Positions 3,430 through 52,779 of a DNA stretch of 55,719 nucleotides are shown here, in pieces (positions within the stretch are counted from its first letter, which is position 1; each line of letters starts with the position of its first letter). Where the stretch lies: positions 1-55,719 of IMG/VR virus record IMGVR_UViG_3300033141_003115; one strand, written 5' to 3'. The position numbers were made by a program, and so were the translations under genes. Below the pieces are notes generated by a model. It ran no database searches and was not told the origin of the DNA. It worked only from the letters and a program-made list of their open reading frames with translations. The stretch comes from a virus. Lineage: Duplodnaviria; Caudoviricetes.

Positions 3430-3458
3430 GAGGTTGAGGGATTTAACCCCTCAACCTC
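3430..3458 (-). terminator. Stem-loop, probable weak intrinsic terminator
   Basis: 11-bp inverted repeat GAGGTTGAGGG/CCCTCAACCTC overlaps the stop codon of the 318-aa gene and is followed on the minus strand by TTCGGTTTT. Confidence 0.6.
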
Positions 3459-14100: not shown

Positions 14101-17100
14101 TGTCGAACCAATGTTGTAAAATCTTACCATAATCAGCTCGACGTTTCGATTCTGGGGGCAATAATCGTTCATATTCTTCTCTATAACGCTGAAGTTTGAC
14201 CTTTAATACGTCTAACGTATCTATACCAAAAGCCTCAGCTAAAGCACGTTTGCCTTCATCTGAAATACTTTTAGCAAGAGCTTCTAAATCTGCTTGAACC
14301 TGTTCTTTTGCTTGTTTCTTAATTATATTCTTCAACATTTCCTTTGCCTTGGGATCAACTTCAGCTAATTTCTGCAATTTAGCTACATCTAAATCTTTAT
14401 AAGAGGCTATCTCACCCCAAACAGCTTCCCATTCTTCTGGAGTGAATAGATTTCTAACTTCTTCTATAACTTTATCTGTAATATTCAATGGGATATTAAA
14501 TATTTCTTCAATGTTAAGTTTAATAGATTCTAAGTCTTGTAATTTCTGATCAACAGAATTTTGTAATTGCTTCTGCTTGTTCAACACATCATTCCAATTA
14601 TTTTTAGCTTCCCGTGCTCGTGGTAAAACATTATTAGATAAATGATCGCTAAACTCTTTTAGCTGGAACAATCGTTCTCTCGTGGAAACAATACTTTCTA
14701 ATCGAATATACTCATCTTGCAAAGCCTCAAGCTCTTGCTCAAAACTCTTCTTATCCTGCTCAGACATATCAGATAACATATCTCGAATTTCATTAAGCTG
14801 GCTATTAATATCTCTTTTAACAGAATCTATTTCTGTCGGAAGTTCTAATCCGTGCTCAGCATATACTTCTTGTAACGATTTCAAGAATTCTCTTCGCCAT
14901 ATCGGTTCTAAGAGCTCTTCCATTTCTTGTGCTACTGAAGCATCTTCTTGAGCTAATACTTTGGCTGTTTCTACAATATCTGTAACTACTATCTCATGCT
15001 TCTCAGCTAATTTGCGTATCCATTCTTTGAAATCTTCTCCATAAGTGTCTATTAAAGTTACTATATCCTGTGTAGTAAAACTTATCTGATCAAAACCTTG
15101 AGATAAATAATCTACCTCTATCTGTAATTGATTCCGTGTTTGTTCTAAACGATTTCTTATATCATTTAAGAGATCATTTTCCACATTATATATTATATCC
15201 AATATAGATGTAATTTTTATCAAAGATAATGCTGCGGCTGCAAAATTACCTCCTACTTTATTTGCTTCCGCCTCAATATCATCTAAACTTCTAAGTATCG
15301 CCATGGATAATACTTTGTTTTTCTCCATCAACGCTTCTGCACGTCGTCGTGCATCCTCAAGCTCTTTATCAAATTCTTCTCTGGACATGCCAGCAATTAA
15401 TTCAGCAAGAATATCTGTTCCACTTTCATGTAATACTTTAATAACATCACCTAATAAACGATTTATCGTAGGTTTTAATATATTACCTAATATAAAATCT
15501 ATAATATCTTGATTACCTTCTTGTACCTGTCTTCTAAGAGCACCTAATAACGTTTCATCAGGTTTGGCATAACCCTGTGCTTGCAAAACCTTTAACAAAT
15601 CTTCTTGAGTAGTACCTAATTCTTCTACAAATTCTTCTAAATCAAAACCAGTTTCTAATATCTGTTCAACAAATATCTGTGCAAAGTTAATCTGCTCATT
15701 TAATACATTCTGTACTTGATCTTGCCATCTTTGCCATGTATCTCTATATGCAGATGTGGTTTCTTCTGCTGATACTTTCCCTGTTGATCTTTGTAATGCG
15801 AAAGTAAGTAATTGCAAGAAACCTATAAAACCTTTAATACTCTTATCTAATTCTTCTCCTTGTATCTCACCCGCTTGAATCATACGCTGTAATTCATCAT
15901 ACATGGCTTTAGCATCATTTACATATTTTATTACTACTTCATTTCCTTCATTGTACAAATCTTCAAATTGATTTATAAAATCATCCATAGCTTTCTTAAG
16001 TTCATCTTGTGGAGTTAATCCTGCTTCTAACGCTAAACTTTGTAAAATATCTTCCTGTCCAAAATACTTTCGAATAAGGCTACCTAATAGCTTCTTTGAA
16101 GCCTCTACTGCTTTAGATGAATAATATACTCTCACTAAATCTTTGACTATACTTAATCCTTCTTCATATCCCTGCTGTAATCCAAGTGCAAGAGCTTTTA
16201 TATTATCTTCTTGAATTCCTAATAATTCCTTTAGTTGTTTCAATACCTCAGCAGATAAATTCTGCATGGCAAACTCTGCTATTGCTTGCCATTCTGTCGC
16301 TTCCACCGAAGGAATTTCTTCTATCTCAACAGAAATTCCTAATAATTCTTTCAACACATCATTAACCATCTGATTTTCTTGTTCTTCAACAGTACTACGC
16401 ATATCTTCTATAGCAGATAAAACAGCTTTTTGACCATTAACAAATTTATCTAATAAATCTTTAACAGCCTCTGGAGCCTTTAAGGCTGTCATGTACAATA
16501 CTGCACGAACAGTCTCGGCTCCACCTACTCTTATATGCAACATGTTTTTCATAATTTTAATAAAATCATCACCATATTGAATAAACATATTATCTATGCT
16601 CTTAACTAAGTCACCAAACTCTTGCAACCGTTTTTTATCTGTTTCAGATAACGTTTTATATGCTAAGTCTAACATTTTACTGATCTTGCTTTGTACATCT
16701 CCCCAAGCACCTTCAGCAATTGCCTTTTGTACATCAGCAACAGCTTTTTCTAAATCACCCAAAAGCTTAGTAACTTCGCTGCGTTTATCTGGGTCTGCAA
16801 TATCTTCTATTTGTTCTCGTACAGAATTTATAAATTTAGTCATAGGCTCTATAACAGCTTTATTAAATACATCATCAAATAACATGCCTGTGCTTTCTCT
16901 AAATGATGTTCCAAAATTCTGTTGAGCAAAACTTACCAGTGAAGTAATAGCCCTCTTAGCTGCAACTTCACTGGGTTCATATTTATAAGTCCCTATTGTA
17001 ACTTCGCCTAATTCTCCTATACTAATATCAAATATATCTTGAATATTTAATAGAAATCCTTCAAATATAGAACGCCATAACCGTTCACCAAACGCTCTTT

Positions 17101-20100
17101 CAACAATATTAATAGTGCCCTCAATAATACGACGTTTAATTTCCTCAGCTGACAATTCTGCTTGCTGCTCTAAATCCGTATCAAGAGCTATGCCCATACT
17201 CTCAGCTAAGCTGCGTAAAAATAGGGATATATCACCCGCCAACCCAATTTGTATTTTCGTAATCTTTTCATTAAGCTCATTAAGATTTCGTTCTGCAGTT
17301 TCTAACGTAGAATTAATTTGTGGATCAATCTTTCTAATTTCTTTGTATTGATTCTCAAACTTATCTCTTAATTCTGCTATTCGAGCACGAATTTCACTTA
17401 TTTTTCCTAAAGCATCCTCTACTCTCATATTTCGCACAGAATCTACTAAACCTTCAACAGATTGTTCAATATCATTAACTAATTCTTGATCACTTACCAA
17501 TAATTGCTTTACATGCTCATTAGTAGAACGACTTAAAGTATCTATTTGATCAACAAGTGCATGAACCTCAGGAAAATATTGTGTAGTCAATATTTCGTTT
17601 ACTTCTTCTGCAGTATTATTAGCCATAACTACCGTGTCAGTAGATTGCGATGCTACGGCTTCTATATTACGAGCTGCTTCTGTCATAACAGCTTGGGTGT
17701 CTTTTATCTCATATCCTTGTTGTCTTAATTCCTCTACATAACTTTCCATTTTAACACTTAAAGGCTGCCAGTCAGCCCGTGCAGAAACCCTGGGAGCTTT
17801 TAACATACCCGCACGACGTAACCCCGCTGTCACCTCTTCGCGAGATAATCTAATAGCATTTATATCATCTATTACCTTAGTTTTTTCCTCTCTATATATA
17901 TCTATTAACTTTTGTGTTTCATCATGCTCTTCTTCTAAAACTTTATAAGCTACCAAAGTGGCTGCTTCAACCACACTAAGTTCTTTGCCCACTTTCGCAC
18001 GAATTTGCTCAATATTTGTTACTCTTTCCATAAAAGAATTATAAACTGCACCAAATGCTTCATCTAACTGCTCCTGTGTTTTATCTCCTAAAATTGATGC
18101 TAATTTTGTTATAGCATAAATAGCTCCAGCACCAAGTAATGCCCACGGAAAAGCTCTACCTATAACTGATACTAATATTGGAAATAACTGTGTTCCAACA
18201 CTTCGACTTATTAAAGCACCTATTTGTCGAATAAAAGTAGTAGCTGTAACAGCAAGAGCTAATTCTACAAATATCATAACAGTTCTATGTTTCTGCATCC
18301 ATTCTTGAAATTCTCCTGGAATAAGTCTAAGTATTATATCTGTAGCAAGAAAAGCTGCTGTCCCCGCTTTAATTCCAAACCCTATTTTCTGTAATAACTG
18401 CATCAATGCGGGACTTTGTCCAGCAGCACTTGCAGCACGAGTAATTGTACTTATTAATTGACCACCTAATAACAACTTAATAGCGCTGAATACAAATTTT
18501 AATTCAGCTATCAGTAATACAAAATCCCAACCACGTAAAATGCGTAGAACATTTTCAAGAGCCAGCTCTAACACAGTTAATATAAATTCAGAAACACCTG
18601 CTGCATTGAATTTATATTTGCCTTCAGGAGTCTTTATATATAAACCTAATATAACTCCAAATTCTAATAATAAATCTGGCAGGGTCATGCGTCCTTCAAC
18701 ACCAAAAATACCAGAAAACATTTCCATTATACTATCATAAACCATGACAAGCATTTTGCGTACAAAATCAGTTATAGTACCTTCAAAATCTTCTAAACCA
18801 AATAACGATATTACTGCATCCTTTATTACATTTGCAATTGCTCTTAAAATATTACCAAATTTTCGAGCAAGAATTGGAATTGTTATAGTATCTATACCCT
18901 GTATAAATCCCATCAAGTTATTATAAAAATCTAATATAGCATCACGTAAACGTTGTATAGAAGGTACTTGAGCAAACAAACCTAATATAGCGTTAGTTAT
19001 ATTCATAAATATTGTAGGTATTAATTCCAATTTCCCTTGTGTAAAAGCATCAACAAATTGCTGTATACCTATAGCAGCAATACGTACGGCTTCTCCAAGT
19101 AACGGAAACCGTTCACTAAATGCCTCAAAAAATTCAGTACCCTGCTGAGCTTGATAAATCAATACTGCAAATGCACTACTAAGGAGTCCAAACGGAGTAA
19201 GTAATCCTCGAACAACACCTGCAACTAAGGCCAATACTGCAAACGAACCATAAAACAGAGATGCAAACTTAGCAAAGTTAGATAATAAACTATCATATTT
19301 TTTAATAATCATACTACCTGCATTCAACAACGATATTCCTATTTCAGTAAAACTCTGTATAGCATCAGATGCCGCCTCTACAACAGAAATTTTAAATGCT
19401 TCCCAAGATGCTTTCAATCTTTCCATAGCAAAACTAACTGCTTTTATCTGTTTTTCATACGCACTCTCCATCGCTCCACCAACTTCTTGCTCATATTGCT
19501 GAGCTATTCGAGAGAATTCAGCAAAGTTATTAACCATAGCACGAAGTACACGAATCGCACGCATATCAAAACCTACTGCTGTAAGCATGCGCTCCTGTGC
19601 TTCTGTACTAAATCCAGCTAAACTATTAGTTAAATCTTGTATAACAGGAAGTAACCCACGAAATTCGCCACGAAGATCATACGCTCGTACACCTAACTCT
19701 TCTAATGCTCGAATTGTATCTGGATTAGCCAGTTCTTCATAAAGACGAGCCAAACCAAAAGCACCCATTTCAGGCGAAAGACCTACACGAGTCAAGAACG
19801 CTATAGAATAGTAAGTCTCTTTAAGCCGCTCCATCTGACCGCCTAAGGATGCAGCAGACTGATAAACACGACCCATAACCGATACTAACTCTTCATATCG
19901 AATAATACCTATCTTAACAGCTTCAAATTGAGCATCGAATATTTCAGTAAGATTTTTTGCACTCAATCCAAAAGCATACATAGCTTGAATTCCACCTTTT
20001 AATGCTATATCAACTGATGTGACACCAGCACGAGCAGCTTTCATGGACTGCTCTACAGTATAAAACATATCCGATACAGCAATACCTGCAGATAAAGCGT

Positions 20101-20866
20101 CGTAAAATGCTTTTGCTACATTAAGAGGAGTTTCACCAAATTTTACAGCTAACGATAATCCAGCTTGATTCATTATATCTACAATGTTAGTTAACTCATT
20201 GCCCATAACTGTAAGACGATAACTTGTTTCTTCCATTTCATCATTAATAAGAGACCATGCATTGTAAATTTCTCGATTATAATCCATAAAAGAATCTAAC
20301 AAAGGACCAAATACTTTTAACATAAGCCATATGTTCATAAATTGCATAAATAACTGATACTGAAACCACTCAAACGCTTTGAAAACTTTTTCTAATCCAC
20401 TGCGCAAAAAATCAAGCGCCTTTGTAACTAATGCAAAAGGCGCTTTTACCACAGTCCAAAGACCCTTAAATAATGTATTTATAGTGACCCTAATTCGACC
20501 AATAGTAACAATAATATCACTAAGAACAGATAGTAACCCCTTAAATCCACCAACTACTAAATCTATAGGATTGGCTAACTTAATTATTTCAATAGTTGCT
20601 ATTTTAACTAAATCCAAAAACGATCTTACAGAAAGACCTGCTCTACGCCATTGCTGTGTTGTCCCCTCTGTAGCTTTATTTAACCCTTGAATCGTAGTAG
20701 CAGCCTTTTCAATCGATTTATTAATCTCACCAAAAGCAGTATTAAATGTCTCAGTAATAGCTGCAGCAGCTTGCTGAGCTTCCCGAACTATATTAACAAA
20801 ATCCGATATTACTCGCTCATATTCGAGAACTATTTGAGCAGTTAGTTCATTCTGTTCCAATTTCAA
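11108..20866 (-). CDS. Tail tape measure protein (~3250 aa)
   Basis: Very long and helical, with a TP901-type core (AKAFYDALSAG, VKIGIIRYEEL, LEELGVRAYDLRGEFRGL) and hydrophobic TM-like segments. Lies downstream of the tail tube and chaperones. TTG start at 20866, or 20860 by SD spacing. Confidence 0.93.
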   Translation of the reverse strand: MKLEQNELTAQIVLEYERVISDFVNIVREAQQAAAAITETFNTAFGEINKSIEKAATTIQGLNKATEGTTQQWRRAGLSVRSFLDLVKIATIEIIKLANPIDLVVGGFKGLLSVLSDIIVTIGRIRVTINTLFKGLWTVVKAPFALVTKALDFLRSGLEKVFKAFEWFQYQLFMQFMNIWLMLKVFGPLLDSFMDYNREIYNAWSLINDEMEETSYRLTVMGNELTNIVDIMNQAGLSLAVKFGETPLNVAKAFYDALSAGIAVSDMFYTVEQSMKAARAGVTSVDIALKGGIQAMYAFGLSAKNLTEIFDAQFEAVKIGIIRYEELVSVMGRVYQSAASLGGQMERLKETYYSIAFLTRVGLSPEMGAFGLARLYEELANPDTIRALEELGVRAYDLRGEFRGLLPVIQDLTNSLAGFSTEAQERMLTAVGFDMRAIRVLRAMVNNFAEFSRIAQQYEQEVGGAMESAYEKQIKAVSFAMERLKASWEAFKISVVEAASDAIQSFTEIGISLLNAGSMIIKKYDSLLSNFAKFASLFYGSFAVLALVAGVVRGLLTPFGLLSSAFAVLIYQAQQGTEFFEAFSERFPLLGEAVRIAAIGIQQFVDAFTQGKLELIPTIFMNITNAILGLFAQVPSIQRLRDAILDFYNNLMGFIQGIDTITIPILARKFGNILRAIANVIKDAVISLFGLEDFEGTITDFVRKMLVMVYDSIMEMFSGIFGVEGRMTLPDLLLEFGVILGLYIKTPEGKYKFNAAGVSEFILTVLELALENVLRILRGWDFVLLIAELKFVFSAIKLLLGGQLISTITRAASAAGQSPALMQLLQKIGFGIKAGTAAFLATDIILRLIPGEFQEWMQKHRTVMIFVELALAVTATTFIRQIGALISRSVGTQLFPILVSVIGRAFPWALLGAGAIYAITKLASILGDKTQEQLDEAFGAVYNSFMERVTNIEQIRAKVGKELSVVEAATLVAYKVLEEEHDETQKLIDIYREEKTKVIDDINAIRLSREEVTAGLRRAGMLKAPRVSARADWQPLSVKMESYVEELRQQGYEIKDTQAVMTEAARNIEAVASQSTDTVVMANNTAEEVNEILTTQYFPEVHALVDQIDTLSRSTNEHVKQLLVSDQELVNDIEQSVEGLVDSVRNMRVEDALGKISEIRARIAELRDKFENQYKEIRKIDPQINSTLETAERNLNELNEKITKIQIGLAGDISLFLRSLAESMGIALDTDLEQQAELSAEEIKRRIIEGTINIVERAFGERLWRSIFEGFLLNIQDIFDISIGELGEVTIGTYKYEPSEVAAKRAITSLVSFAQQNFGTSFRESTGMLFDDVFNKAVIEPMTKFINSVREQIEDIADPDKRSEVTKLLGDLEKAVADVQKAIAEGAWGDVQSKISKMLDLAYKTLSETDKKRLQEFGDLVKSIDNMFIQYGDDFIKIMKNMLHIRVGGAETVRAVLYMTALKAPEAVKDLLDKFVNGQKAVLSAIEDMRSTVEEQENQMVNDVLKELLGISVEIEEIPSVEATEWQAIAEFAMQNLSAEVLKQLKELLGIQEDNIKALALGLQQGYEEGLSIVKDLVRVYYSSKAVEASKKLLGSLIRKYFGQEDILQSLALEAGLTPQDELKKAMDDFINQFEDLYNEGNEVVIKYVNDAKAMYDELQRMIQAGEIQGEELDKSIKGFIGFLQLLTFALQRSTGKVSAEETTSAYRDTWQRWQDQVQNVLNEQINFAQIFVEQILETGFDLEEFVEELGTTQEDLLKVLQAQGYAKPDETLLGALRRQVQEGNQDIIDFILGNILKPTINRLLGDVIKVLHESGTDILAELIAGMSREEFDKELEDARRRAEALMEKNKVLSMAILRSLDDIEAEANKVGGNFAAAALSLIKITSILDIIYNVENDLLNDIRNRLEQTRNQLQIEVDYLSQGFDQISFTTQDIVTLIDTYGEDFKEWIRKLAEKHEIVVTDIVETAKVLAQEDASVAQEMEELLEPIWRREFLKSLQEVYAEHGLELPTEIDSVKRDINSQLNEIRDMLSDMSEQDKKSFEQELEALQDEYIRLESIVSTRERLFQLKEFSDHLSNNVLPRAREAKNNWNDVLNKQKQLQNSVDQKLQDLESIKLNIEEIFNIPLNITDKVIEEVRNLFTPEEWEAVWGEIASYKDLDVAKLQKLAEVDPKAKEMLKNIIKKQAKEQVQADLEALAKSISDEGKRALAEAFGIDTLDVLKVKLQRYREEYERLLPPESKRRADYGKILQHWFDKMEEAIKEDQLAVAQEYAAMIEEFLQFVRSESEDTADEIRSVDYTQIRENYEKISNAISNALDLLRTALQKGYDFIIEKFGNDITNLINGFKSGVSQGYMNLMDQITETVETAITKETTATLSERLVTESGQKAIALAQKRIESLLYAINLSYTTTLKEMNALAQHIEDLQNALTSASDSDRERIKAEIEQAQVQYKALDIEVKTLDKVYTELLALAKGEIKSIDDLSQETKAFLIEYGTRLRDVLRIERFEEAYINLKNALKTGLYTTLNNFLDDLRRAFADVRDEMDIDDLVQEQLSQIPRSELPLIITKLSDVVQSASSDVVSQLVDQYTSDLDKLLSLAQVRGKLTEGDVRETLTNVWEAWRTAFSGILSTDTLNQIKKYIDRFIAEGQFDVISLGTFVTTLRGYVYTELETWIQNNFEAIRKALETGDVSQLTDEQKKFLLVLFDVYGTKIKDWVSETQDAIEGINFRGIFDPETLFGTLENTVGQINMDFVQWLRDFQTDRTSKIDYIMESLSDAIDVMYVQLSRDIIDIQKKYGEGTQEWIDALQSLSEKYGVEILDPQTKKIKELSKAEFVAVIRAHVEELLEILSREGEITEAQLTEMGSWVIPLLKLLQAIFGDLAEASQDIAEMLKDLDFDRFISRLRTVAFDVQDMKQELEQIFAETDEAKLSDIIGEYANTAIEVLAIEIMDRVQDLRERYSKDTTKFKQELARLSQEYGIDLVTWLETYGADQAALQNELRSRFDTEWATLRTLLEQGNKQAIISYLMEHQEFAQFIIDAYQRNKEQINEAERELQEQQQAIRNAFTGFLDSLTDFLTTLGNTFPSMQDATSKIVQAINIISNTATRMMELQAAAQTALASQTLIGTVAGSLGWVGVGLLFIGGLMQIFNLFNQSQEQETEAIQNHLSALERNTVALEALTDILSRMRATLYNAPSEFGYAFVPASAMTPAIAPAGVPASVTVTVNVNGQGGIPDSDIDKIARAVENSVRRVY

Positions 20867-36064: not shown

Positions 36065-37018
36065 ATGACATATACTAACGAGATGGATAATATAATTAAA
36101 ACTCTTAAGCAACAGGGTTTAACCTATACAGAAATAGCTTCAGTTGTAAATAAACAGTTTGGAATGAGCAAATCTTCTGAAGCTATACGTAAGAGATATT
36201 ATAGAATTCGTTCACGTCCTGATCATGTATTTGTTGATGAAACACCAGAATATATAGCAGAAGATGTCATTTCAGTTGAAGATGATGTTTTCGTTTTAGG
36301 TGTTATATCTGATACTCATTTAGGCTCGAAATATCATGCTGAAGAAGAGCTGAAAGATTTTTATGAATTTATGCGAGATCATAAAGTTCAACATGTTCTT
36401 CATGCTGGTGATGTACTTGAAGGTGATGGTTGGTTATTTCGTGGTCAGCTTTACGATATATTGAGTATTGGTATTGATAATATTCTTGATTATGTAGTTG
36501 AAAATTATCCTACATATGAAGGCTTAGTACAGCATGTTATAAGTGGTCAGCATGATGAAATATTCACAAAACGTTATGGTTATAACATTTTGAATCAAGT
36601 ATCATTACGCCGCGATGATATTATTTATTATGGTTCATTTATGACATATTTAACATTACAACATAAGAATCAAGAAATACACATAGTTTTACAGCATGGA
36701 TCAAATAGTCTTACCACAGCTCATAGTTATCGATTACAGAAATATGTAGATGTTTCCAAATCTATGTTTGCTGATGGTTTCGATATGTTGATTCTTGGAC
36801 ATTATCATTCTATGGCGATATTACCAGAATACAAACGTGTTATCAGCATAATGCCTGGATGTTTTCAGCATCAGACAAAACTGTTCGCTGAGAAGGGTTT
36901 AGTTCCTGTTATAGGGGGTTTAATTTTGAAAATACATTTTACTGATAATGGGTGGCATGTCGAGTATATTACACGAACTTATCCTGTGAAAACAGTATAT
37001 ATGATAGAACGGGGATGA
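36065..37018 (+). CDS. Calcineurin-like metallophosphoesterase with N-terminal HTH
   Basis: Motifs SDTH, HAGDVLEG, GQHD, QHG and GHYH. N-terminal GLTYTEIA HTH. Confidence 0.85.
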   Translation: MTYTNEMDNIIKTLKQQGLTYTEIASVVNKQFGMSKSSEAIRKRYYRIRSRPDHVFVDETPEYIAEDVISVEDDVFVLGVISDTHLGSKYHAEEELKDFYEFMRDHKVQHVLHAGDVLEGDGWLFRGQLYDILSIGIDNILDYVVENYPTYEGLVQHVISGQHDEIFTKRYGYNILNQVSLRRDDIIYYGSFMTYLTLQHKNQEIHIVLQHGSNSLTTAHSYRLQKYVDVSKSMFADGFDMLILGHYHSMAILPEYKRVISIMPGCFQHQTKLFAEKGLVPVIGGLILKIHFTDNGWHVEYITRTYPVKTVYMIERG

Positions 37019-37022
37019 TATT

Positions 37023-37550
37023 ATGTCAAATAAGTATCAGCAACAACACGACGACTTAGACATGGAACTATATTACAGTTTTATTCCTTTTGTGGTAAAA
37101 TCGTGGTTTTCGAGACATAATTATTCAATAAATTTGAAAGATTATTTAGATGACATTGTCAGTGAGTTATATTTAATGTACAAAACAGAAGATATATTTG
37201 AGCGATTACAATTACGCTGGCCAGAGGATATTGGTATGTGGTATGTTATTTTCTTTTATAGAGTGCCTAAGGCAATAAAGAATGCTATACCCAATTTTGA
37301 GTTATTAGATGAATTGCCTTATAATCAAGGTCAAGATGATGAACATGAAGCATTATTATTCGAAGAAATCTTAAATGGAGATATATTTACATCAACAGAA
37401 GGAAACATTCTATCGGCAGCATATTTATATTATATCAAATCATACTCAAGAAAAGATATAGCAGAAAAGTTTGAAGTTTCTGTTTCTACTGTGGGAAGAT
37501 GGCTTGATCAAGCTAAACGGATTCTTAAAAAAATTTTCTGGGAGGAATGA
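37023..37550 (+). CDS. Sigma-70-like factor (region 4 HTH)
   Basis: C-terminal YSRKDIAEKFEVSVSTVGRWLDQAKRILKK and region-2-like LDDIVSELYL. Confidence 0.65.
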   Translation: MSNKYQQQHDDLDMELYYSFIPFVVKSWFSRHNYSINLKDYLDDIVSELYLMYKTEDIFERLQLRWPEDIGMWYVIFFYRVPKAIKNAIPNFELLDELPYNQGQDDEHEALLFEEILNGDIFTSTEGNILSAAYLYYIKSYSRKDIAEKFEVSVSTVGRWLDQAKRILKKIFWEE

Positions 37551-38962
37551 AAATGGTGAAGTTGTTTCGTTATCCAAATATTGTAGCTGTTAAGACAAAA
37601 AATCAAAGTGTGTATAAATTGTTGTATGAGAATTTAGCAGTAAGAAGTCCCAACTATTGGTTTTCAAAAGCATATAAAGAAGGTCGATGGGATGGATATT
37701 TTCGATTATTTAATCAACGACGTAAGATATTTCCATCAGGTTTGATTGATCAAGCTATTGATTTGATTGATCAAAATAAGATTTCTTATGAGCTTATAGA
37801 CAAAAGAACTAAACCTGAGCCCACATTAAATATCAATAGTAGTATTAAGTTGAGACCATACCAACAATATGCATTGGAACGGTTATTAAAAGATGAACAA
37901 GGTATTGTATGGTTACCTGTCAATGCTGGAAAAACTTACATAGCTTTACAACTCATAGCAAGGCGCCAGGTACCAACATTATGGGTAACACATCGGAAAG
38001 AATTAGCTATACAGACAGGAGAGTTAATAAAGAAATATTTGAACATTGAACCTGGGCTCATAGGCATGGGTCATAATATTATTCGACCAATTACTGTGGC
38101 GATGATACAGACATTATCTCAGCGTGTGAAAGAATCCACTAAATTTGCTCAAGAATTAAATGATAATTTTGATCAATTAATTGTAGATGAATGTCATCAT
38201 GTAGCTAAGAATATATATTATAATGCTATGATTAAATTGGAGATGTATTATCGTTATGGATTATCTGGGACACCTAAACATCGTAATGTTGTAGATGTAT
38301 TCTATACTAAAGCTGTATTTGGGCCTATTTTAGTACATATGCAGCAAAAGGAGCTTGTGAAATTAGGTGTTAGTGTTCAGCCCTGGGTGTATATGATACA
38401 ATTACCTGCAGATGTATCCACGACTATGGATTATGCAGACGTATATGACACAGTTGTGATTAATAATCCTACACGCACGGCTTATATAGCTAAAATAGCT
38501 TTGTCTTATGTACAAGAAGGTAAACAAGTATTAATTATGGTTGATCGTATTCAACATGGAGAGAATTTACTTAACGCTATTAAGGAACAATATTCTAATG
38601 TAGCTTTTATTAGTGGACAGGAAACCGCTGATGTACGACAAGATGCTATTAATCGATTCGAACAAAGTAAATTACAGATACTTATCGCTACCAATATTCT
38701 TAATGAAGGAGTTTCTCTTCACAGTATAGATGTCGTGATTGTAGCTGGAGCAGGAAAGAGTGCTGTGGCGACTATTCAGCGTGTAGGTCGAGCTTTGCGT
38801 ACTCGTATAGGCAAAGATCGTGCTATTATCATTGATTTCTGGGATATAGATAAGAAATATTTGAATTATCATGCGTCTAAACGTTATGCTGTATACAAGC
38901 GTGAATTTGAAAATGTAATAGTATTGGATCAAAATGGTAATCAAATTAATGTAGAATTGTAA
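37547..38962 (+). CDS. uvsW: SF2 helicase (UvsW-like)
   Basis: LRPYQ, LPVNAGKT, DECHH, GLSGTP, QRVGRALR and the N-terminal WDGY motif. Confidence 0.88.
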   Translation: MKMVKLFRYPNIVAVKTKNQSVYKLLYENLAVRSPNYWFSKAYKEGRWDGYFRLFNQRRKIFPSGLIDQAIDLIDQNKISYELIDKRTKPEPTLNINSSIKLRPYQQYALERLLKDEQGIVWLPVNAGKTYIALQLIARRQVPTLWVTHRKELAIQTGELIKKYLNIEPGLIGMGHNIIRPITVAMIQTLSQRVKESTKFAQELNDNFDQLIVDECHHVAKNIYYNAMIKLEMYYRYGLSGTPKHRNVVDVFYTKAVFGPILVHMQQKELVKLGVSVQPWVYMIQLPADVSTTMDYADVYDTVVINNPTRTAYIAKIALSYVQEGKQVLIMVDRIQHGENLLNAIKEQYSNVAFISGQETADVRQDAINRFEQSKLQILIATNILNEGVSLHSIDVVIVAGAGKSAVATIQRVGRALRTRIGKDRAIIIDFWDIDKKYLNYHASKRYAVYKREFENVIVLDQNGNQINVEL

Positions 38963-38981
38963 AGCAAACCTGTTATTTGTA

Positions 38982-38990
38982 TGTTATACT
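38982..38990 (+). promoter_or_regulatory. Extended -10 promoter candidate
   Basis: TGTTATACT in the short gap before the UvsY-like gene. Confidence 0.4.
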
Positions 38991-39008
38991 CTAACTGGAG
39001 GTGAAAAC

Positions 39009-39404
39009 ATGTGGGATTTCGTAAATTTGGATAATGTGGAGAAGTTAAAAGAGTTATTGGAAATTAGTACGGATTTTCACTCCATGGCCGAGCAGTTACC
39101 TACACAGCTCTTTTTGGTACATATGCAATATAGTCAAGCTCGAAAACAGTACATAGAAGCAGATTTAGCACTCAAGCATTATGAAGCTAATCGTTATCTT
39201 GAGCTGAGGCGTCGTGCTGCTGAAACAGGAGAAAAAGTTACAGAAAAGACTTTGGAAGCCAGTATTCGTAGTGATCCAAATTGGGTAAAATTGGTTCAAC
39301 AGCGTGCAGAAATTGAACGTAAAGTTAATACCTTGTCTGGATTAATAAATGCCCTGAACTCTAAAAGCCAGTTGGTCCAAGCATTAGTTAAAACTGGAAT
39401 GTAA
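39009..39404 (+). CDS. UvsY-like recombination mediator
   Basis: Helical 131 aa with KVTEKTLEASIRSDPNW; lies between helicase and SSB/recombinase. Confidence 0.6.
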   Translation: MWDFVNLDNVEKLKELLEISTDFHSMAEQLPTQLFLVHMQYSQARKQYIEADLALKHYEANRYLELRRRAAETGEKVTEKTLEASIRSDPNWVKLVQQRAEIERKVNTLSGLINALNSKSQLVQALVKTGM

Positions 39405-39429
39405 TTTATTATTAAAGGAGGCGTGAAAT

Positions 39430-40266
39430 ATGGCGTATGATTTGTCTTATTTAACAAATACCATGGAAAAGTTAGATGTTGGGGGTAACGGAGGTGTGCG
39501 ATACTTCAACATGAAAAACAGAAATCAAACAGTAATTAGATTAATACCTATAACACAAGAAAAACCTGTATGGCTTGTTGCTTATCATTATAATTTTGAT
39601 AATACAGTTACATCAAAGATACTTTGTCCAGCACGTACAGCCGTGTTGAATGATCAAATTGTACCTGAATGTCCTGTATGTAAGCATGCGCTTGAAGTTC
39701 CTTCCAATGAACGCAAACGCTGGATGCCTCGTGATCGAGTTATCTTTTATGTTATTGATGCAGCAGAAGTTCATGTAGGTGTTAAAGTCATGGATTTGTC
39801 TGTTTATGTAGCACGAGAGTTAGCTTCAATGGTAGCTGAGAATCCGGACAAATTTTTAGATTTGGCAAAGGGGCATCCTATAAAAATTAGTAAAGTTGTA
39901 AATGCAAACGGAAGTTATTATTATAACTATGTTCCTGTTGATGATAAAGTTGTTGATCTAACCAAGACAGTTCAAGTAAATGTAAATGGACAGGCTATGA
40001 CTGTTAATATTGCTGAGCTTATAGAATCTACTAAACCTGATCCTGAGATGTTATTTGCATTTCCAAGTGAAGCTGAATTAAAGGCATTTATTAATGATTC
40101 TTTTGAACCTGCACAACAGAATAAAGATGTAGTACCAACACTGATAACTCCTCAAGATTACAAAGCTGATACAGCTCAAGAATCTCAAAAGATTACACCC
40201 CCTACTGAAGATTTGAACAAGTTACAATCTTTGTTAAGTGATGTCACTGATTCCTTTGGAGGGTGA
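39430..40266 (+). CDS. gp32-like single-stranded DNA-binding protein
   Basis: VIRLIP, a His/Cys zinc set (YH...LCP...CPVC), GHPIKISK and an acidic low-complexity tail. Confidence 0.75.
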   Translation: MAYDLSYLTNTMEKLDVGGNGGVRYFNMKNRNQTVIRLIPITQEKPVWLVAYHYNFDNTVTSKILCPARTAVLNDQIVPECPVCKHALEVPSNERKRWMPRDRVIFYVIDAAEVHVGVKVMDLSVYVARELASMVAENPDKFLDLAKGHPIKISKVVNANGSYYYNYVPVDDKVVDLTKTVQVNVNGQAMTVNIAELIESTKPDPEMLFAFPSEAELKAFINDSFEPAQQNKDVVPTLITPQDYKADTAQESQKITPPTEDLNKLQSLLSDVTDSFGG

Positions 40267-40268
40267 TC

Positions 40269-41261
40269 ATGGATATATTGTCTTCTGGAGCAGTAGAAGA
40301 ATTTGTCAAACGTGAATCTACAGAGTATATAATTCCCACAGGTGTAGATATTATTGATCACTATCTATTATATAGAGGTGGATTTCCAACAGGCATTGTA
40401 GCTGAAATATCTGGCTGGGAAGGCTCAGGTAAAACTACTCTTGTAATGAACATAGCTAAGAACACACAAAAGATAGGTGGAGTAGTGCTTCTTGCAGATA
40501 TTGAGCCTTGGGATATTGATCGTATGAAACAAATAGGTATTGAAACGTCTCCAGATAAGCTCTTAGTTATTAAAGGTGAATTTATTGAAGAACGATTTGC
40601 AAACTTGATTAAAGCTATCTCCAATTTACAGCAAGCAAAAGATATTCCAGCGCCTATAACAATAATTTTTGATTCAATAGCATTAGGGATCACACGAAAA
40701 GAACTCAATGCTATTGTTAATGATAATGAAAATGCACCTATAGCAGCGAAAGCTCAAGTGTTAACTACACGGTTAGCCTTAGTTGAGAATCTTATCAGAA
40801 ACACCCCTATATTATTTATATTCGTAAACCAATTTCGTCAGAAATTAGAAATTCGTATGCCTTGGTTAGGGGGTGGGGGGATTTCAACACCTGGAGGACA
40901 TGCTCTACGTTATGCAGCCAGTGTACGCTTATATCTACAAGCTGGAAAAGCGTATGAAGAAGAACATCCTATTGGTTATATAGTTACTGTCTCTACGGAG
41001 AAGAATAAGATCGCTCCACCTTTAGCCAATGTAACGTATCTGCAATATTATAATGGTTCTTTTGGAAATTGGTGGAGTATAATAGAAGGAGGTGTTCAGT
41101 TAGGTATTATTGAGCAAAAACGAGGTTGGTATTCTTATAACAACAAATCTTTTCGTAAAAATTCAAAAATAGTACAAGAATCTTTCTATGAAGAATTACG
41201 TCAAGCCGTGATTGCTGGTTGGAAACAATATGTAGAACAAATTTATTCGCAGGAGGTATGA
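40269..41261 (+). CDS. recA: RecA/UvsX recombinase
   Basis: Walker A GWEGSGKT, IIFDSIA, FVNQFRQK, TPGGHALRYAASVRL and KNKIAPP. Confidence 0.93.
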   Translation: MDILSSGAVEEFVKRESTEYIIPTGVDIIDHYLLYRGGFPTGIVAEISGWEGSGKTTLVMNIAKNTQKIGGVVLLADIEPWDIDRMKQIGIETSPDKLLVIKGEFIEERFANLIKAISNLQQAKDIPAPITIIFDSIALGITRKELNAIVNDNENAPIAAKAQVLTTRLALVENLIRNTPILFIFVNQFRQKLEIRMPWLGGGGISTPGGHALRYAASVRLYLQAGKAYEEEHPIGYIVTVSTEKNKIAPPLANVTYLQYYNGSFGNWWSIIEGGVQLGIIEQKRGWYSYNNKSFRKNSKIVQESFYEELRQAVIAGWKQYVEQIYSQEV

Positions 41262-41268
41262 TATACAT

Positions 41269-42303
41269 ATGAATAAATTCGTTGTAATTGGTGATTTACA
41301 TTTGCGTACAGAGTTTTTAGATAAGTTTGAACCTTTCTTTAATATGCTTTCTACTTTTGATTGTCCCCTGATCTTTTTAGGGGACATCTTTCATTTCAGA
41401 GGAGCTTTTTCAGGTAAATTTTTAGTAGATGTTAAGAGCTTGTTTGATAAACTTAATAATCCTGTAACGATAATAGCTGGAAATCATGATAGGGTATATA
41501 ATGAGCGCACAATATTAGAATTATTTCAAGCACCAAATATGCGAGTTGTGAATCGGTTACTTATAGAGCCTCCTTATGCTTATGTAGCTTTTACTTCAGA
41601 TAATAGCATTCTGGAAGATTTATTCAAGCACAAAGACGTTAAGGTAATATTCAGTCATTTACCTATTGATGGGCATCCTTTAGCACGTAATGCGAAATTT
41701 GCTCCTGAACTGTTCAAAAATTTCGAATTGATATTCAATGGACACTGGCATTCTCCCAAATGTCTTAATAATATTGTGTTTACTGGATCGATTTATCATG
41801 TAACTAAAGCAGAAATAGGTAATCGTACTATGATTTACATAGTGGAAAACAACCAAGTAAAATCACAAGATGTATTGGTCTTGCATCGTGTTCGTGTAGA
41901 AGAATTCATGAAGGAATATAATACACCAGATTATATTATTTACACGCGTAGCGCAGATATAGCACAGCAATACACCAATGCATATAATGTTATAGTAGAA
42001 ACAAACACAACAACTTCAGATGCTGATGTAAAAAGCACATTACCTATGTTATCTTTCTGGGATGAGGTAGAAACACAGCTCATTGATTATTTAGCTGAAC
42101 GAGAGCTATCATCCAAAGAAATCGATACAGCATTAGCTTTATTACCAGATGATATATTAGCACATTGGAATAAGCATTCATTAGTTACTGCTATTATAAC
42201 TGAATATGAGAACAAGCTAAAAGAGTTACAAAATAATATTTCATCATACGATTCTGCAATACAAGCTATTATTAAGGAAGGTGAATCTCGTGATACGCTT
42301 TGA
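41269..42303 (+). CDS. Mre11/SbcD/gp47-like nuclease
   Basis: GDLH, LGDIFH, GNHD and GHWH motifs; directly upstream of the Rad50-like gene. Confidence 0.88.
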   Translation: MNKFVVIGDLHLRTEFLDKFEPFFNMLSTFDCPLIFLGDIFHFRGAFSGKFLVDVKSLFDKLNNPVTIIAGNHDRVYNERTILELFQAPNMRVVNRLLIEPPYAYVAFTSDNSILEDLFKHKDVKVIFSHLPIDGHPLARNAKFAPELFKNFELIFNGHWHSPKCLNNIVFTGSIYHVTKAEIGNRTMIYIVENNQVKSQDVLVLHRVRVEEFMKEYNTPDYIIYTRSADIAQQYTNAYNVIVETNTTTSDADVKSTLPMLSFWDEVETQLIDYLAERELSSKEIDTALALLPDDILAHWNKHSLVTAIITEYENKLKELQNNISSYDSAIQAIIKEGESRDTL

Positions 42304-44014
42304 ACATGTACAGTTAAAGAATTTTCTATGTTATACTAACGCAGAATTGGATTTAGCAAATCGGGGTATTGTTAGAGTAAATGGTAAAAATGGTGCTGGT
42401 AAAAGTGCTCTATTTGAAAGTATCTTGTGGGCGTTATTTGGTAGAACTCCTCGTGGATTAGATTCTAAAAACATAATAAAATATGGTACAGATAATGCTT
42501 CGGTAGAATTAAGTTTAACATATCAGAATCATAATTATGTTATTAAACGAGAAGTTACACCATCTAAGCACACACTGATCTATTACAAAGATGGAACAGA
42601 ACATACGTTTCCTTCCGTACGCGAGGCTCAAGATGCATTAAATCAAGAATTGGGTCAGATAAGTGAAAGTTTAATATTACAGACTTTTTATTTGAAGCAA
42701 TATGATCATGATACTTTTGTATACTTGACTGATTCTAAACAAAAAGATATCTTGGAAGACATTCTTGGCATGGCTATGTTTGATTATACATTCAAGCTTT
42801 TGAAAGATACACACGATCAGATGCAAAGTTTGATATTAAAACATGAGCAAGAATTATCTCGTATACACTCATTAATACAAAATGTTGAAAGTTATATCGC
42901 ATTATTAGACACACAGAAAAGCTCATTAAAACGATCTGCGCCTACAATGAAAGAAGCGGATGTTCGAGCTAAACTGGATTCTTTAAACACTAAGCTAACA
43001 GAATATCAGAATAAATTACAACAGATATTAGATCAAGAACGACAGTTAAATGGTATAATCAATAAATTAGTAGAAGAAGCTCAGAAAGTTAAATCAGTAG
43101 CATCTTCAGATACATTATACATATTAAAATTATATACTACTGCTATACAGACAAAACAGTGTCCTGTGTGTCAACAGCATATAACAGATGATATTGAGAA
43201 TCGCATGAAAGCATCTATTGATTATATAAGATCGCAGATATATTCACACAATGTAGATGAATTAAAGACTCAACTAAGAGATGTTCAATTAAAGCTATCA
43301 TCTTTACGTCAAGAAGAAGAAAAATTACGAAATCTTATTGGTATAACAGAACAGGAGATATTAAAATTAGAAGCAATTCGAAGGGAGGTGTCGTCTCATG
43401 TTTCAGAGCTGGAGCGATTGGTTCTTCGGATCGACAAGCAAAAAGAACAACTCAATACTCTTCGATCTCAATTGGTTCAGTTTAGAGAGCAAAGCAAAGC
43501 CTCGGATTTGGTTTCTCTGGTCGAAATGGTTAGGATTTTGATGGATGCATTTGGCTCACAAGGGATTAAGAATAACATTATTGATAAATATGTTGCAGTA
43601 TTGAACCAGCATTTGAATAATGTTTTACAGTATATTTTGCCTCATGTTACTGCACAGGTTAGCACATATAGATATACTAAGACAAATCAATTACGACGAA
43701 AATTAACATTTCAAGTATTTTATAATGATACTGAGACAACATTCAAAGCTTTGAGTGGTGGAGAGCGTAAACGATTAGAGATCGCTACAATCTTAGCATT
43801 ACAGAAAGTAGTAGAGATGTTAGGTCGATTTCAAAGTAATATAATCATATTTGATGAAATATTTGATCAATTAGATGCTTCGGGTATTGAAGCCATAGTA
43901 GAATATTTACGTACTTATAATGACAAAGAGAGCTTGTTCTTAATCTCGCATTCACCTTATATCTTTACTGTGGATGATATAATAGATATTGATGGGGGTG
44001 AAATTCATGAATAA
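42290..44014 (+). CDS. Rad50/SbcC/gp46-like ATPase
   Basis: GKNGAGKS, coiled coil with CPVC zinc hook, LSGGE, FDEIFDQLD and ISH. Start moved to GTG 42290. Confidence 0.92.
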   Translation: MIRFEHVQLKNFLCYTNAELDLANRGIVRVNGKNGAGKSALFESILWALFGRTPRGLDSKNIIKYGTDNASVELSLTYQNHNYVIKREVTPSKHTLIYYKDGTEHTFPSVREAQDALNQELGQISESLILQTFYLKQYDHDTFVYLTDSKQKDILEDILGMAMFDYTFKLLKDTHDQMQSLILKHEQELSRIHSLIQNVESYIALLDTQKSSLKRSAPTMKEADVRAKLDSLNTKLTEYQNKLQQILDQERQLNGIINKLVEEAQKVKSVASSDTLYILKLYTTAIQTKQCPVCQQHITDDIENRMKASIDYIRSQIYSHNVDELKTQLRDVQLKLSSLRQEEEKLRNLIGITEQEILKLEAIRREVSSHVSELERLVLRIDKQKEQLNTLRSQLVQFREQSKASDLVSLVEMVRILMDAFGSQGIKNNIIDKYVAVLNQHLNNVLQYILPHVTAQVSTYRYTKTNQLRRKLTFQVFYNDTETTFKALSGGERKRLEIATILALQKVVEMLGRFQSNIIIFDEIFDQLDASGIEAIVEYLRTYNDKESLFLISHSPYIFTVDDIIDIDGGEIHE

Positions 44015-49776: not shown

Positions 49777-49817
49777 TTCAAATTGTAAAGTTATAGACAT
49801 AATAATCATATTTTTTG

Positions 49818-49826
49818 TGTTATAAT
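49818..49826 (+). promoter_or_regulatory. Extended -10 promoter candidate for the accessory cluster
   Basis: TGTTATAAT upstream of SD AAGGAGG and GTG 49850. Confidence 0.55.
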
Positions 49827-49849
49827 TAAAAAGGAAAGGAGGAAAAAGC

Positions 49850-50734
49850 GTGAAATTCATTTTAATAGGAGGTGTTTTGATAGTGAGTGTATTGACATCT
49901 GGAGCAGATACTTGTTATAGGAAAACATTACAGGATTACTTGGTAACGCATTTATATTTATCTGAAAAACGAGCTCAAGAACTTCTTGATGGTATATATG
50001 ATGGTATCGAAGATGCTAAGGAATTTAATTCTATTATTAAAGTACATCCCATAGAAATGATTGCTATTTTAGAAGCTGAAAGTTCTGGTAGAAACATTAT
50101 GGGAGATAAAGGCACAGCCGTAGGATATTTTCAACTTCATTGGGAAGCTATTTGGTTTGTTTGGAGTTATTTCCCACATTTGAAGCGGGAAGAGTTTAAG
50201 AAAAAACCTTTAAATGTATTCATAGATTTTCCATACACACAAGCTCGATTAGCTACATTGTATTTATACTTACTAAAGCTGCAATTTGGTGATGATGCAT
50301 ATAGTGCATATAATGGATGGAATGATGCATATGCAGAACAGATTAGAGAGAATATCAAACGTATCACAGATTATTGTACGGAAACTTTTGGGCCTGTTTT
50401 AGTGCTTACAGATACTTTACCTAAGGAAATATTTATGCCTGCTGAAGAACAAACAGTTTTTATAACTCCTGTTACAACGCAAGATGTTTTAGCTATGTTG
50501 CCTCAGTATAAAGTGTTTGGTGATTTTGCTTATGATGGAGTTAAAATTGCAATAGAGAGATTTTTGGATATTAAAATTGATCCTGTACCAGATGATTTGA
50601 AGATGGATGAAAATGTAACATTGGTTAAATGCAGTTATTCTATAATAGAGACATATGACTATGGAGATTATATAGATGGCTACCCAGCAATTGATGATGA
50701 AGAACCTAAATTTCATATATATGAGATTCTGTGA
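49850..50734 (+). CDS. SLT-type lytic transglycosylase with N-terminal hydrophobic signal and C-terminal DUF1874-like domain
   Basis: AILEAESSG (catalytic Glu), AVGYFQL and SAYNG. The C-terminal ~113 aa follow the DUF1874 pattern. Confidence 0.7.
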   Translation: MKFILIGGVLIVSVLTSGADTCYRKTLQDYLVTHLYLSEKRAQELLDGIYDGIEDAKEFNSIIKVHPIEMIAILEAESSGRNIMGDKGTAVGYFQLHWEAIWFVWSYFPHLKREEFKKKPLNVFIDFPYTQARLATLYLYLLKLQFGDDAYSAYNGWNDAYAEQIRENIKRITDYCTETFGPVLVLTDTLPKEIFMPAEEQTVFITPVTTQDVLAMLPQYKVFGDFAYDGVKIAIERFLDIKIDPVPDDLKMDENVTLVKCSYSIIETYDYGDYIDGYPAIDDEEPKFHIYEIL

Positions 50735-51123
50735 GGGATGATATGATGTTGCTAAAAATAGAAACATTTATTTTGATGTCTTGGTTTATAGCTTTTCTTT
50801 CGGCACGATTGACAGTATATTTCATGTTTAAATCTCTGGATGATTTAGCGTTTGATGATATAGATGCTTTACATAAGCATGATTTTTGGGGACGTTTTTT
50901 TGCTGCTGTTCTTATGATTTGTTCATTTGGATTATTCAAGTATCCTTTTCCAGAGTTTCTCAATGAAAATGGTACAACACATAAAGAAAACTTTGACACT
51001 GAAATAGATGAAATAGTAATTTCAATCTTATCGGATTTGTCTGATAAACAAATTGAGGATATAGTTACCATGGCTAAAATACGTAGAGAATGGAAACAAT
51101 TGAGAGATGATGATAGTGTGTAA
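50731..51123 (+). CDS. Membrane protein (2 TM helices)
   Basis: Two hydrophobic stretches and an acidic C-terminus; overlaps the SLT stop codon. Confidence 0.6.
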   Translation: MRDDMMLLKIETFILMSWFIAFLSARLTVYFMFKSLDDLAFDDIDALHKHDFWGRFFAAVLMICSFGLFKYPFPEFLNENGTTHKENFDTEIDEIVISILSDLSDKQIEDIVTMAKIRREWKQLRDDDSV

Positions 51124-51478
51124 AATTTTGAACACATTATGGCACATGATTCAAGACTTCTTTTATGTTCGGTTACGGATGGCATTTTTAACACGTCGTT
51201 ATTATCGTTGTGTTCAGATTCAGTTCATTCAGTGGTTCTTGCAGCAGCAAGCGAAGCACACAGATAATATAACTGAATTTGCTACGTATTTATATATGTC
51301 TGAAACAAAGGCTTATGATTTGATATCAAATACAACTTATTTATCTCTCAAGGATATGGTACGTATAGCTTTTCTATTAGGATATAAAATTGTATTACGC
51401 TTTGAACCTTTAAGTGAATGGGAAATGCAAGAAATTGAAGAGTTACGTGCCAAATTGGATGGAAAGTTTAATTCATAA
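51107..51478 (+). CDS. XRE-like HTH protein
   Basis: NITEFATYLYMSETKAYDLIS...LSLKDMVRIAFLLGYKIVLRFEP. Confidence 0.65.
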   Translation: MMIVCKILNTLWHMIQDFFYVRLRMAFLTRRYYRCVQIQFIQWFLQQQAKHTDNITEFATYLYMSETKAYDLISNTTYLSLKDMVRIAFLLGYKIVLRFEPLSEWEMQEIEELRAKLDGKFNS

Positions 51479-51491
51479 GGAGGCTGATATT

Positions 51492-52367: not shown

Positions 52368-52394
52368 GAAGATGATTAAAACCGAAGGAGTGAT

Positions 52395-52742
52395 ATGATA
52401 ATGCTATATATTACGGATCATATATGGTCTGTATTAAAAAAACGACGTTTATATGATGTATCTATTTTGTCTATTACTGAAGCAGAGGCCCGATGGATTG
52501 TTGATCAAGCCAAGAAAATACAGTGGATTATTTTTGATGACACATTGAATAATGTATTGACACATAAATTTGGCCGTAGTATCCGATCTGCAAAACAACA
52601 TATAGAATTAGGTAATGAAGACTGGGCTATAGTAATAGATTATACAGGATCGCCTTTGACAGCTACAATGACGGATATACCTGAAGATGGGTGTTTGAGG
52701 TATTGGTTAATAGTCGTAAAGGAATATAAGGAAAATGTATGA
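52395..52742 (+). CDS. DUF1874/AcrIII-1-like protein, apparently degenerate
   Basis: MLYIT...SITEAEAR...VLTHKFG...IELGNEDWAIVIDYTG...IPE...RYWLIVV matches family length and spacing, but the GH motif is absent. Confidence 0.6.
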   Translation: MIMLYITDHIWSVLKKRRLYDVSILSITEAEARWIVDQAKKIQWIIFDDTLNNVLTHKFGRSIRSAKQHIELGNEDWAIVIDYTGSPLTATMTDIPEDGCLRYWLIVVKEYKENV

Positions 52743-52779
52743 GTGTGATTCTAATGCCATAATGAAAGGAGGCTTAAAA

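Follow-up and report, generated by a model that had tools for sequence, protein, structure and literature searches.

The window analyzed here is the whole of a 55.7-kb virus record (IMG/VR record IMGVR_UViG_3300033141_003115) with a G+C content of 34% and an estimated completeness of 38%; the phage was detected in marine metagenomes. On its plus strand, 73 nt downstream of a primase gene, lies the open reading frame (ORF) 49850..50734, here called the focal ORF. An earlier annotation made from the letters without database searches, the sequence-only reading, proposed that a signal-like N terminus and an SLT-type lytic transglycosylase are fused in frame to a degenerate relative of AcrIII-1, a ring nuclease that acts on cyclic tetra-adenylate (cA4). 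The focal ORF encodes a 294-amino-acid (aa) protein from a GTG codon behind GGAGG, and the coordinates of all features are collected in Table 1. We report that the fusion is genuine, that its N-terminal part reads as a divergent, exported transglycosylase, and that its C-terminal part is probably a dimerizing domain of no known family.

Table 1. Coordinates of the focal ORF, its parts, and the surrounding genes in the window
Feature	Coordinates	Strand	Remarks
Whole focal ORF, 294 codons plus TGA stop	49850..50734	+	GTG start
Shine-Dalgarno sequence GGAGG	49838..49842	+	7 nt 5′ of the GTG start, read from the sequence
Predicted export signal, residues 1 to 20	49850..49909	+	K2, hydrophobic core, S17-G18-A19 before D20
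Divergent SLT (family 1 lytic transglycosylase) core, residues 65 to 167	50042..50350	+	Pfam PF01464 alignment
Codon of E77, candidate catalytic glutamate (E77-S78)	50078..50080	+	Invariant in 4/4 sequences of alignment A3
Orphan acidic C-terminal domain, residues 179 to 294, predicted homodimerizer	50384..50731	+	
Strand of residues 201 to 207, predicted to form the antiparallel strand pair on the dimer axis	50450..50470	+	ESMFold2
Shine-Dalgarno-like AAGGAA (50423-50428), 6-nt spacer, in-frame ATG of M196 (50435)	50423..50437	+	
Small membrane-protein gene	50743..51123	+	8 nt after the focal stop codon, behind GAGGGA
115-aa ORF with weak DUF1874/STIV_B116-like signals	52395..52742	+	1.7 kb downstream of the focal ORF
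Terminase, tail-tube, and tail-tip genes	to ~33.3 kb	−	
UvsW-like helicase, RecA, Mre11/Rad50-like proteins, DnaB, family A polymerase, DnaG-type primase	from 33.8 kb	+	

The fusion is genuine and conserved

That the C-terminal stretch is in frame with the enzyme, and that the two form one gene, was confirmed by relatives and by environmental variants. A metagenome contig (L004) that is 99.1% identical in DNA sequence over 1,938 bases keeps the focal frame intact, and a protein cluster (P0001) with 93% protein identity to the focal ORF is likewise 294 aa long. Moreover, contigs of four runs from four studies (X1, labeled a hydrothermal vent metagenome; X2, labeled a sediment metagenome; X4; and X5) were compared with the focal region, and no insertion or deletion (indel) was found inside the focal ORF, nor is it broken by a stop codon in these near-identical variants. 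The junction between the two domains was bridged by contigs of three of the four runs (X2, X4, and X5), the X1 contigs ending at 50391 and 50412 and so not bridging it. The sole indel near the ORF was an extra G after 49837 in three of the four runs (X1, X4, and X5), which lies upstream of the start codon in a purine-rich stretch just 5′ of the focal Shine-Dalgarno (SD) sequence, where X2 has no coverage. An assembly artifact or a pair of separate genes is ruled out by L004, P0001, and the contigs of X2, X4, and X5, all of which keep the single frame.

More distant relatives are shorter and stop short of the extra domain, at about residue 178 of the query. P0002 and P0003 are 177 and 178 aa long, and a viral contig (L002) carries an ORF of 173 aa that ends with its own stop codon and matches the focal protein by tblastn at an E value of 3e-10. 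As these relatives stop before the extra domain, the N-terminal enzyme exists alone, and the focal lineage added residues 179 to 294. The claim that a separate C-terminal domain had been joined to the transglycosylase is thus upheld.

The added residues are also conserved. Between P0001 and the focal protein, 5 of 116 residues differ in the C-terminal domain and 12 of 158 in the N-terminal domain. The variable sites listed among the run contigs included at least 8 synonymous and at least 2 nonsynonymous sites in the C-terminal domain and at least 10 and at least 5, respectively, in the N-terminal domain, two further sites not being among those counted. Because synonymous changes outnumber nonsynonymous ones and the differences from P0001 are few, the frame of the C-terminal domain is under purifying selection, and the same observations rule out an unselected read-through tail. 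We conclude that the fusion of an SLT enzyme to an extra C-terminal domain is genuine and conserved.

Sequence searches of reference collections gave little else. The focal protein had no tblastn match among 50,697 phage records. No PHROGs family was matched by the protein or its C-terminal part at an E value of ≤10, and no NCBIfam family was matched by the protein at an E value of ≤1. Among Protein Data Bank (PDB) sequences, nothing related was found at an E value of ≤10, either by phmmer with the focal protein or by a profile of a four-homologue alignment (A3). A Pfam match to CoiA_C was rejected as noise: it covers 22 residues at E values of 0.04 to 0.09 and scores 13 to 14 bits against a cutoff of 21 bits.

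A divergent transglycosylase behind a predicted export signal

SLT enzymes are recognized by a catalytic glutamate within an E-S motif, by G-x-x-Q, and by A-Y-N-x-G. The corresponding set in the focal protein is E77-S78, G92-Y-F-Q95, and A153-Y-N-G156, of which E77, G92-Y-F-Q95, and N155-G156 are invariant in all four homologues. From the family motif, we take E77 to be the candidate catalytic residue. Pfam profile PF01464 aligned residues 65 to 167 of the focal protein with profile positions 12 to 107 of 117 at 12.1 bits (E = 0.14) and matched all four family members at an E value of ≤10, including P0002 (E = 0.082) and P0003 (E = 0.022). The L002 homologue scored 27.2 bits (E = 3e-06), above the cutoff of 21.3 bits. 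With the focal protein below the cutoff but its L002 homologue above it, SLT membership rests on transitive homology. The earlier claim of an SLT enzyme with its glutamate at 50078-50080 therefore stands as to the motifs, that codon being the invariant E77, but the focal protein itself falls short of Pfam recognition.

Structural comparison gave weak matches of the same kind. An AlphaFold2 model of the N-terminal domain had a predicted local distance difference test (pLDDT) score of ~70 to 87, and when the domain was compared with the PDB by Foldseek, 8 of the 10 best rows were lysozyme-superfamily structures (Slt70, MltC, Slt, GH19 chitinase, and MltE). The best E value was 0.33 (Slt70), the rows for Slt70, MltC, Slt, and MltE ranged from 0.33 to 3, and no row had an E value of ≤0.001. 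On the basis of motifs and transitive homology, we accept residues ~60 to 178 as a divergent SLT-type lytic transglycosylase. The protein resembles known SLT transglycosylases (PF01464; Escherichia coli Slt70 and MltE, and phage SLT-type lysins) in its E-S, G-x-x-Q, and A-Y-N-x-G motifs, in a homologue that passes Pfam, in its best Foldseek rows, and in a predicted export signal like that of the cellular enzymes. It differs from them in being very divergent (12.1 bits) and in carrying an orphan acidic C-terminal domain that is absent from its nearest relatives outside P0001 (P0002, P0003, and the L002 ORF).

Residues 1 to 22 of the focal protein are hydrophobic (Kyte-Doolittle segment mean, 1.93), as the earlier description of a signal-like N terminus implied, and a hydrophobic N-terminal stretch is present in all four homologues of A3. 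By the −3/−1 rule, cleavage would presumably follow A19. Judged by such rules, the N terminus reads as a cleavable Sec signal or a signal-anchor; inspection by eye for a lipoprotein signal found no lipobox before C22. Together with the motifs and the Pfam match of the L002 homologue, the hydrophobic segment supports a divergent SLT-type transglycosylase with an export signal. An N-terminal export signal ahead of a muralytic domain is likewise found in signal-peptide and signal-arrest-release (SAR) endolysins and in VirB1-type enzymes. Compared with these by description only, the focal protein is set apart by a C-terminal domain without known counterpart.

An acidic C-terminal domain predicted to form a homodimer

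No relative of the C-terminal domain was found at near lengths by a word-index search or in scans of viral contigs and genome contigs. None was found in the source record of L002, a negative that shows little. Two HMMER hits among 1.84 billion representatives were rejected as spurious, both being to long tandem-repeat proteins aligned in 5 to 8 short stretches.

When two copies of the domain were given to ESMFold2, a symmetric homodimer was predicted with a pLDDT of 80. All three runs returned an interaction prediction score from aligned errors (ipSAE) of 0.56, and none of three controls scored above 0.00. The domain reaches the mark set for this score; in a benchmark, 21 of 30 proteins with structures solved as same-chain pairs did so, as did none of 23 solved as single chains. 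Contact agreement among the runs was at least 81%, and the partner pLDDT was at least 79. The contacts of lowest error join domain residues 24 to 24 and 25 to 25, within a predicted interface of domain residues 12, 14, 17 to 29, 82, 84, 89, 109, 111, and 116. Moreover, an arm made of residues 195 to 200 of the full-length protein contacts residues 260 to 262 and 287 to 289 of the partner. As no PDB sequence is related to the protein, the prediction is unlikely to be the recall of a solved complex. We conclude from these models that the C-terminal domain is probably a compact, orphan, dimerizing domain of no known family.

The domain could instead be mainly a module that binds the cell wall or envelope and thereby targets the enzyme, in which case dimerization would be incidental or absent. 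The usual plan of phage lysins places a targeting domain C-terminal to the catalytic one, and relatives that lack the C-terminal domain are what would be expected of an accessory targeting module. Wall-binding domains are usually basic, however, and residues 179 to 294 contain 23 Asp and Glu residues against 8 Lys and Arg, with an isoelectric point (pI) of 4.05 and a net charge of −15.5. In addition, no binding-domain family was matched in Pfam, PHROGs, or NCBIfam, and the homodimer prediction passes its controls. We consider wall binding an unlikely main function for the domain.

Kinship with AcrIII-1 is unsupported

For comparison with AcrIII-1, a DUF1874 alignment of 19 sequences was used (SIRV1 ORF114 and 18 relatives), all of which carry PF08960. 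By hmmscan, PF08960 was not matched at an E value of ≤10 by the whole focal protein or by residues 182 to 294, and a six-frame search of the whole window likewise gave no match at that threshold, the same search having recovered the family in control genomes. Profile comparison of the alignment with the C-terminal domain by hhalign returned a probability of 0.12% and an E value of 0.48 over 21 columns. The best Smith-Waterman score of the domain against the 19 members was 37, compared with 34.2 ± 4.2 for shuffled sequences, and 59 of 200 shuffles reached 37; the by-eye alignment to AcrIII-1 on which the sequence-only reading had relied is therefore no better than chance. A custom hidden Markov model (HMM) of the 19 members scored the domain at 1.4 bits, which 9 of 500 shuffles exceeded and which is a faint excess at most, and the whole focal frame ranked 12th of 105 window frames at 0.2 bits. 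ESM Atlas features of the domain were at the level of noise, with a best score of 0.81 and 21 to 38 of 256 features shared with the nearest clusters, none of which was DUF1874. A Foldseek search of the PDB with an AlphaFold2 model of the domain, uninformative at the model's pLDDT of 34.9, gave no row at an E value of ≤0.001 and no DUF1874 structure among the 50 rows listed. In the literature, no paper was found that names both "DUF1874" and "transglycosylase."

The residues that define the family told the same story. According to the AcrIII-1 study (10.1101/778746), the protein is a dimer in which His47 is absolutely conserved and catalytic and in which the side chains of R66, R85, N8, S11, and T50 contact cA4. 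MAFFT placed the C-terminal domain in the register that had been proposed by eye, with few gaps to about residue 86, and the single stretch aligned by hhalign falls in that same register. In this register, 1 of 16 family-invariant columns is kept (G89), and the other 15 are replaced. The observation that the catalytic G-H reads A-Y and that the arginines are missing was accurate: G46 is replaced by Ala, and H47, R66, R85, N8, S11, and T50 are replaced by Y, P, T, D, P, and V, respectively.

One interpretation of these replacements is that residues 179 to 294 keep the AcrIII-1 fold without its catalytic His or the Arg residues that bind cA4 and are reused for dimerization or ligand sensing. The shared register, the custom HMM score that few shuffles exceeded, and a weakly DUF1874-like ORF 1.7 kb downstream in the same phage could all be cited for it, as could the match between the AcrIII-1 dimer (10.1101/778746) and the dimer predicted here. 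Dimerization is not specific to AcrIII-1/DUF1874, however, and the silence of PF08960, the hhalign result, the share of shuffles that equaled the best Smith-Waterman score, the 12th-place rank of the frame, the 15 replaced columns with all six functional residues among them, and the null Atlas features tell against a common fold. BLASTP between the domain and the downstream ORF also found nothing at an E value of ≤100. We regard retention of the fold as highly improbable. Of the proposal that a ring-nuclease fold was repurposed for dimerization or ligand sensing, the dimerization part fits the ESMFold2 homodimer, and the kinship is unsupported.

The chemistry of the domain argues against ligand sensing as well. 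As an export signal precedes it, the C-terminal domain would be expected to end up outside the compartment in which cyclic oligoadenylates are synthesized, and its strong negative charge would make it unsuited to an anionic ligand. Sensing of cA4 or cA6 by an exported domain of such charge is, on these grounds, unlikely. The domain is like AcrIII-1/DUF1874 proteins (PF08960, STIV_B116-like) in its length of ~115 aa, its predicted homodimer, and a loosely similar hydrophobic order; it is unlike them in showing no HMM or profile similarity, in the replacement of invariant residues that include H47, R66, and R85, and in being strongly acidic and, by prediction, exported, where those proteins are cytoplasmic and bind nucleotides. 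We conclude that, by sequence comparison, the C-terminal domain is no detectable relative of AcrIII-1.

A downstream ORF with weak DUF1874-like signals

Of the 105 window frames, the 115-aa ORF 52395..52742 has the highest score on the custom DUF1874 HMM, 9.3 bits (E = 0.0058), which was reached by 1 of 1,000 of its own shuffles. hhalign aligned DUF1874 with it over 87 columns at an E value of 0.008 and a probability of 5%. Moreover, the second- and third-nearest ESM Atlas clusters (scores of 0.83 and 0.81, with 194 and 183 of 256 features shared) have PF08960 in 26% and 15% of their members. Pfam is silent on this ORF at an E value of ≤0.1, and no relatives were found in viral contigs. The ORF keeps 2 of the 16 invariant columns, has F-D at the family G-H, and lacks the R85 loop. 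The signals are weak and concordant, and this ORF is a better candidate than the focal domain for a degenerate, possibly catalytically dead AcrIII-1 relative.

A related idea is that the focal C-terminal domain is an extremely diverged copy of the DUF1874 fold, possibly of common stock with ORF 52395..52742, that is extracytoplasmic and reused purely as a dimerizing scaffold on a wall-cutting enzyme. If true, this would be the first example of a ring-nuclease fold working outside the cytoplasm in a nonnucleotide role, and we give this idea the lowest probability of all those considered here.

A possible internal start within the C-terminal domain

The sequence-only reading had stated that the fusion contains no internal SD sequence. 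That statement was mistaken, as AAGGAA occupies 50423-50428, with a 6-nt gap between it and the M196 codon, an in-frame ATG at 50435. Single-gene, two-polypeptide endolysins are known (PMC9430671 and PMC4777826), and the focal gene could similarly produce, from the M196 codon, a 99-residue C-terminal polypeptide that multimerizes with the full-length enzyme. Consistent with such an arrangement, the predicted dimer strand lies shortly after M196, and among the 295 ATGs that are internal and in frame in 47 window ORFs, a comparable SD motif stands before only 6, of which at least 2 are probably true gene starts. The motif is not conserved, however: it reads AAGGAG in L004, X1, and X2 but AAGAAA (E193K) in X4 and X5. 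Moreover, M196 lies 17 residues inside the domain and not in a linker, and with five internal Met codons in the gene, a single chance match is not rare. The short product, having no export signal, would stay in the cytoplasm and away from the exported enzyme, and the known cases come from phages of Gram-positive hosts.

The focal gene resembles those of two-polypeptide endolysins (LysP7951, CTP1L, and others) in encoding, after the catalytic domain, a C-terminal domain that is here predicted to self-associate, and in having an internal SD and ATG near the start of that domain. It differs in its predicted export signal and in the loss of the internal SD from two of four environmental variants. 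We think it very unlikely that the gene yields two isoforms.

Genomic neighborhood and the case for a lysin

The ORF that directly follows the focal gene, 50743..51123, has a hydrophobic segment at residues 5 to 32 of its 130-aa reading and an acidic tail, and searches of Pfam, PHROGs, and NCBIfam gave it no family match. Lysis pairs commonly look like this, with a gene for a muralytic enzyme that is exported and, behind it, one for a small membrane protein, and the downstream ORF is a candidate holin or other lysis partner.

An alternative is that the focal protein is not the lysis enzyme but a specialized transglycosylase that is expressed with the replication genes and remodels the wall locally in a VirB1-like manner, for example for superinfection exclusion or for envelope-spanning assembly. 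VirB1 itself combines a signal and an SLT domain with a C-terminal part that plays its own role. The focal gene is encoded downstream of the genes for DnaB, PolA, and primase and shares their strand, and the stand-alone SLT gene of L002 (5623..6144) likewise adjoins a gene for a RecA-like ATPase. No terminator-like site was found in 48800-52800, where 1.3 ± 1.2 were found in shuffles, and the same interval held 21 promoter-like sites against 24.7 ± 4.8 in shuffles; no conclusion follows from either scan. The position behind replication genes, together with the incomplete record, leaves room for a nonlytic specialized role. Nevertheless, no secretion or conjugation genes were seen among the 20 ORFs scanned, the gene immediately downstream encodes a small membrane protein, an arrangement seen in lysis cassettes, and gene position is weak evidence of timing. 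We do not expect a nonlytic role to be the correct explanation, rating it about as low as wall binding.

The L002 contig also carries, after its SLT gene, an 84-aa ORF (6273..6527, plus strand) that by eye has a hydrophobic N terminus and a charged, helix-looking tail and resembles a membrane-anchored lysis accessory.

Several points weigh against a dimerizing phage lysin. The focal gene lies in a replication block and not beside structural genes, no holin family match supports a lysis cassette, and, the record being 38% complete, another lysin may be encoded elsewhere. The focal protein scores below the PF01464 cutoff (12.1 versus 21.3 bits) and has no PDB or PHROG sequence match. AlphaFold2 gave the C-terminal domain a pLDDT of <40 in the full-length model and 34.9 alone, such that only one predictor sees a fold, and the dimer is a prediction expressed as model confidence.

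Elsewhere in the window, the family A polymerase is at most ~30% identical (<31%) to that of any deposited phage. A replication block at 36065..44014 (plus strand) includes RecA, a UvsW-like helicase, and two calcineurin-like phosphoesterases, one of which adjoins an SbcC/Rad50-like ATPase, and amounts to a fairly complete set for recombination-dependent replication. On the minus strand, a giant ORF of 3252 codons (11108..20866) lies within the tail module, flanked by the tail-tube and tail-tip genes. Near the tail-tip genes, a 318-aa ORF (3457..4413, minus strand) matches CBM_X2 (E = 2.8e-07) and DUF4183 (E = 4e-04) and is possibly a receptor-binding or carbohydrate-binding protein.

Interpretation

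With the evidence weighed as above, we favor, as fairly likely, the interpretation that the focal gene encodes an exported SLT-type phage transglycosylase with a lineage-specific acidic dimerizing domain, most likely the phage lysin acting with the downstream membrane protein. In the mechanism that we propose, the N-terminal signal or signal-anchor would move the enzyme out of the cytoplasm, where E77 of the E-S motif would serve as acid/base catalyst in cleavage of the glycan strand. The acidic domain of ~116 residues would pair two enzyme molecules through the antiparallel strand at residues 201 to 207, and pairing would give a wall-cutting enzyme that is bivalent or regulated by dimerization. 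The enzyme would then work as the lysin, together with the small membrane protein encoded directly downstream.

As the AcrIII-1 link is unsupported, the fusion raises no new question on CRISPR signaling. The case illustrates how an alignment drawn by eye, although nearly free of gaps, may be no different from one to shuffled sequence. In this phage, ORF 52395..52742 is the more promising place to look for a catalytically dead relative of DUF1874. If the dimer prediction holds, the focal protein would be a phage transglycosylase that is exported and that owes its bivalence to a domain from a new family. It would then be a small addition to the ways in which phage wall enzymes are built and controlled, and the domain itself a possible new self-associating module.

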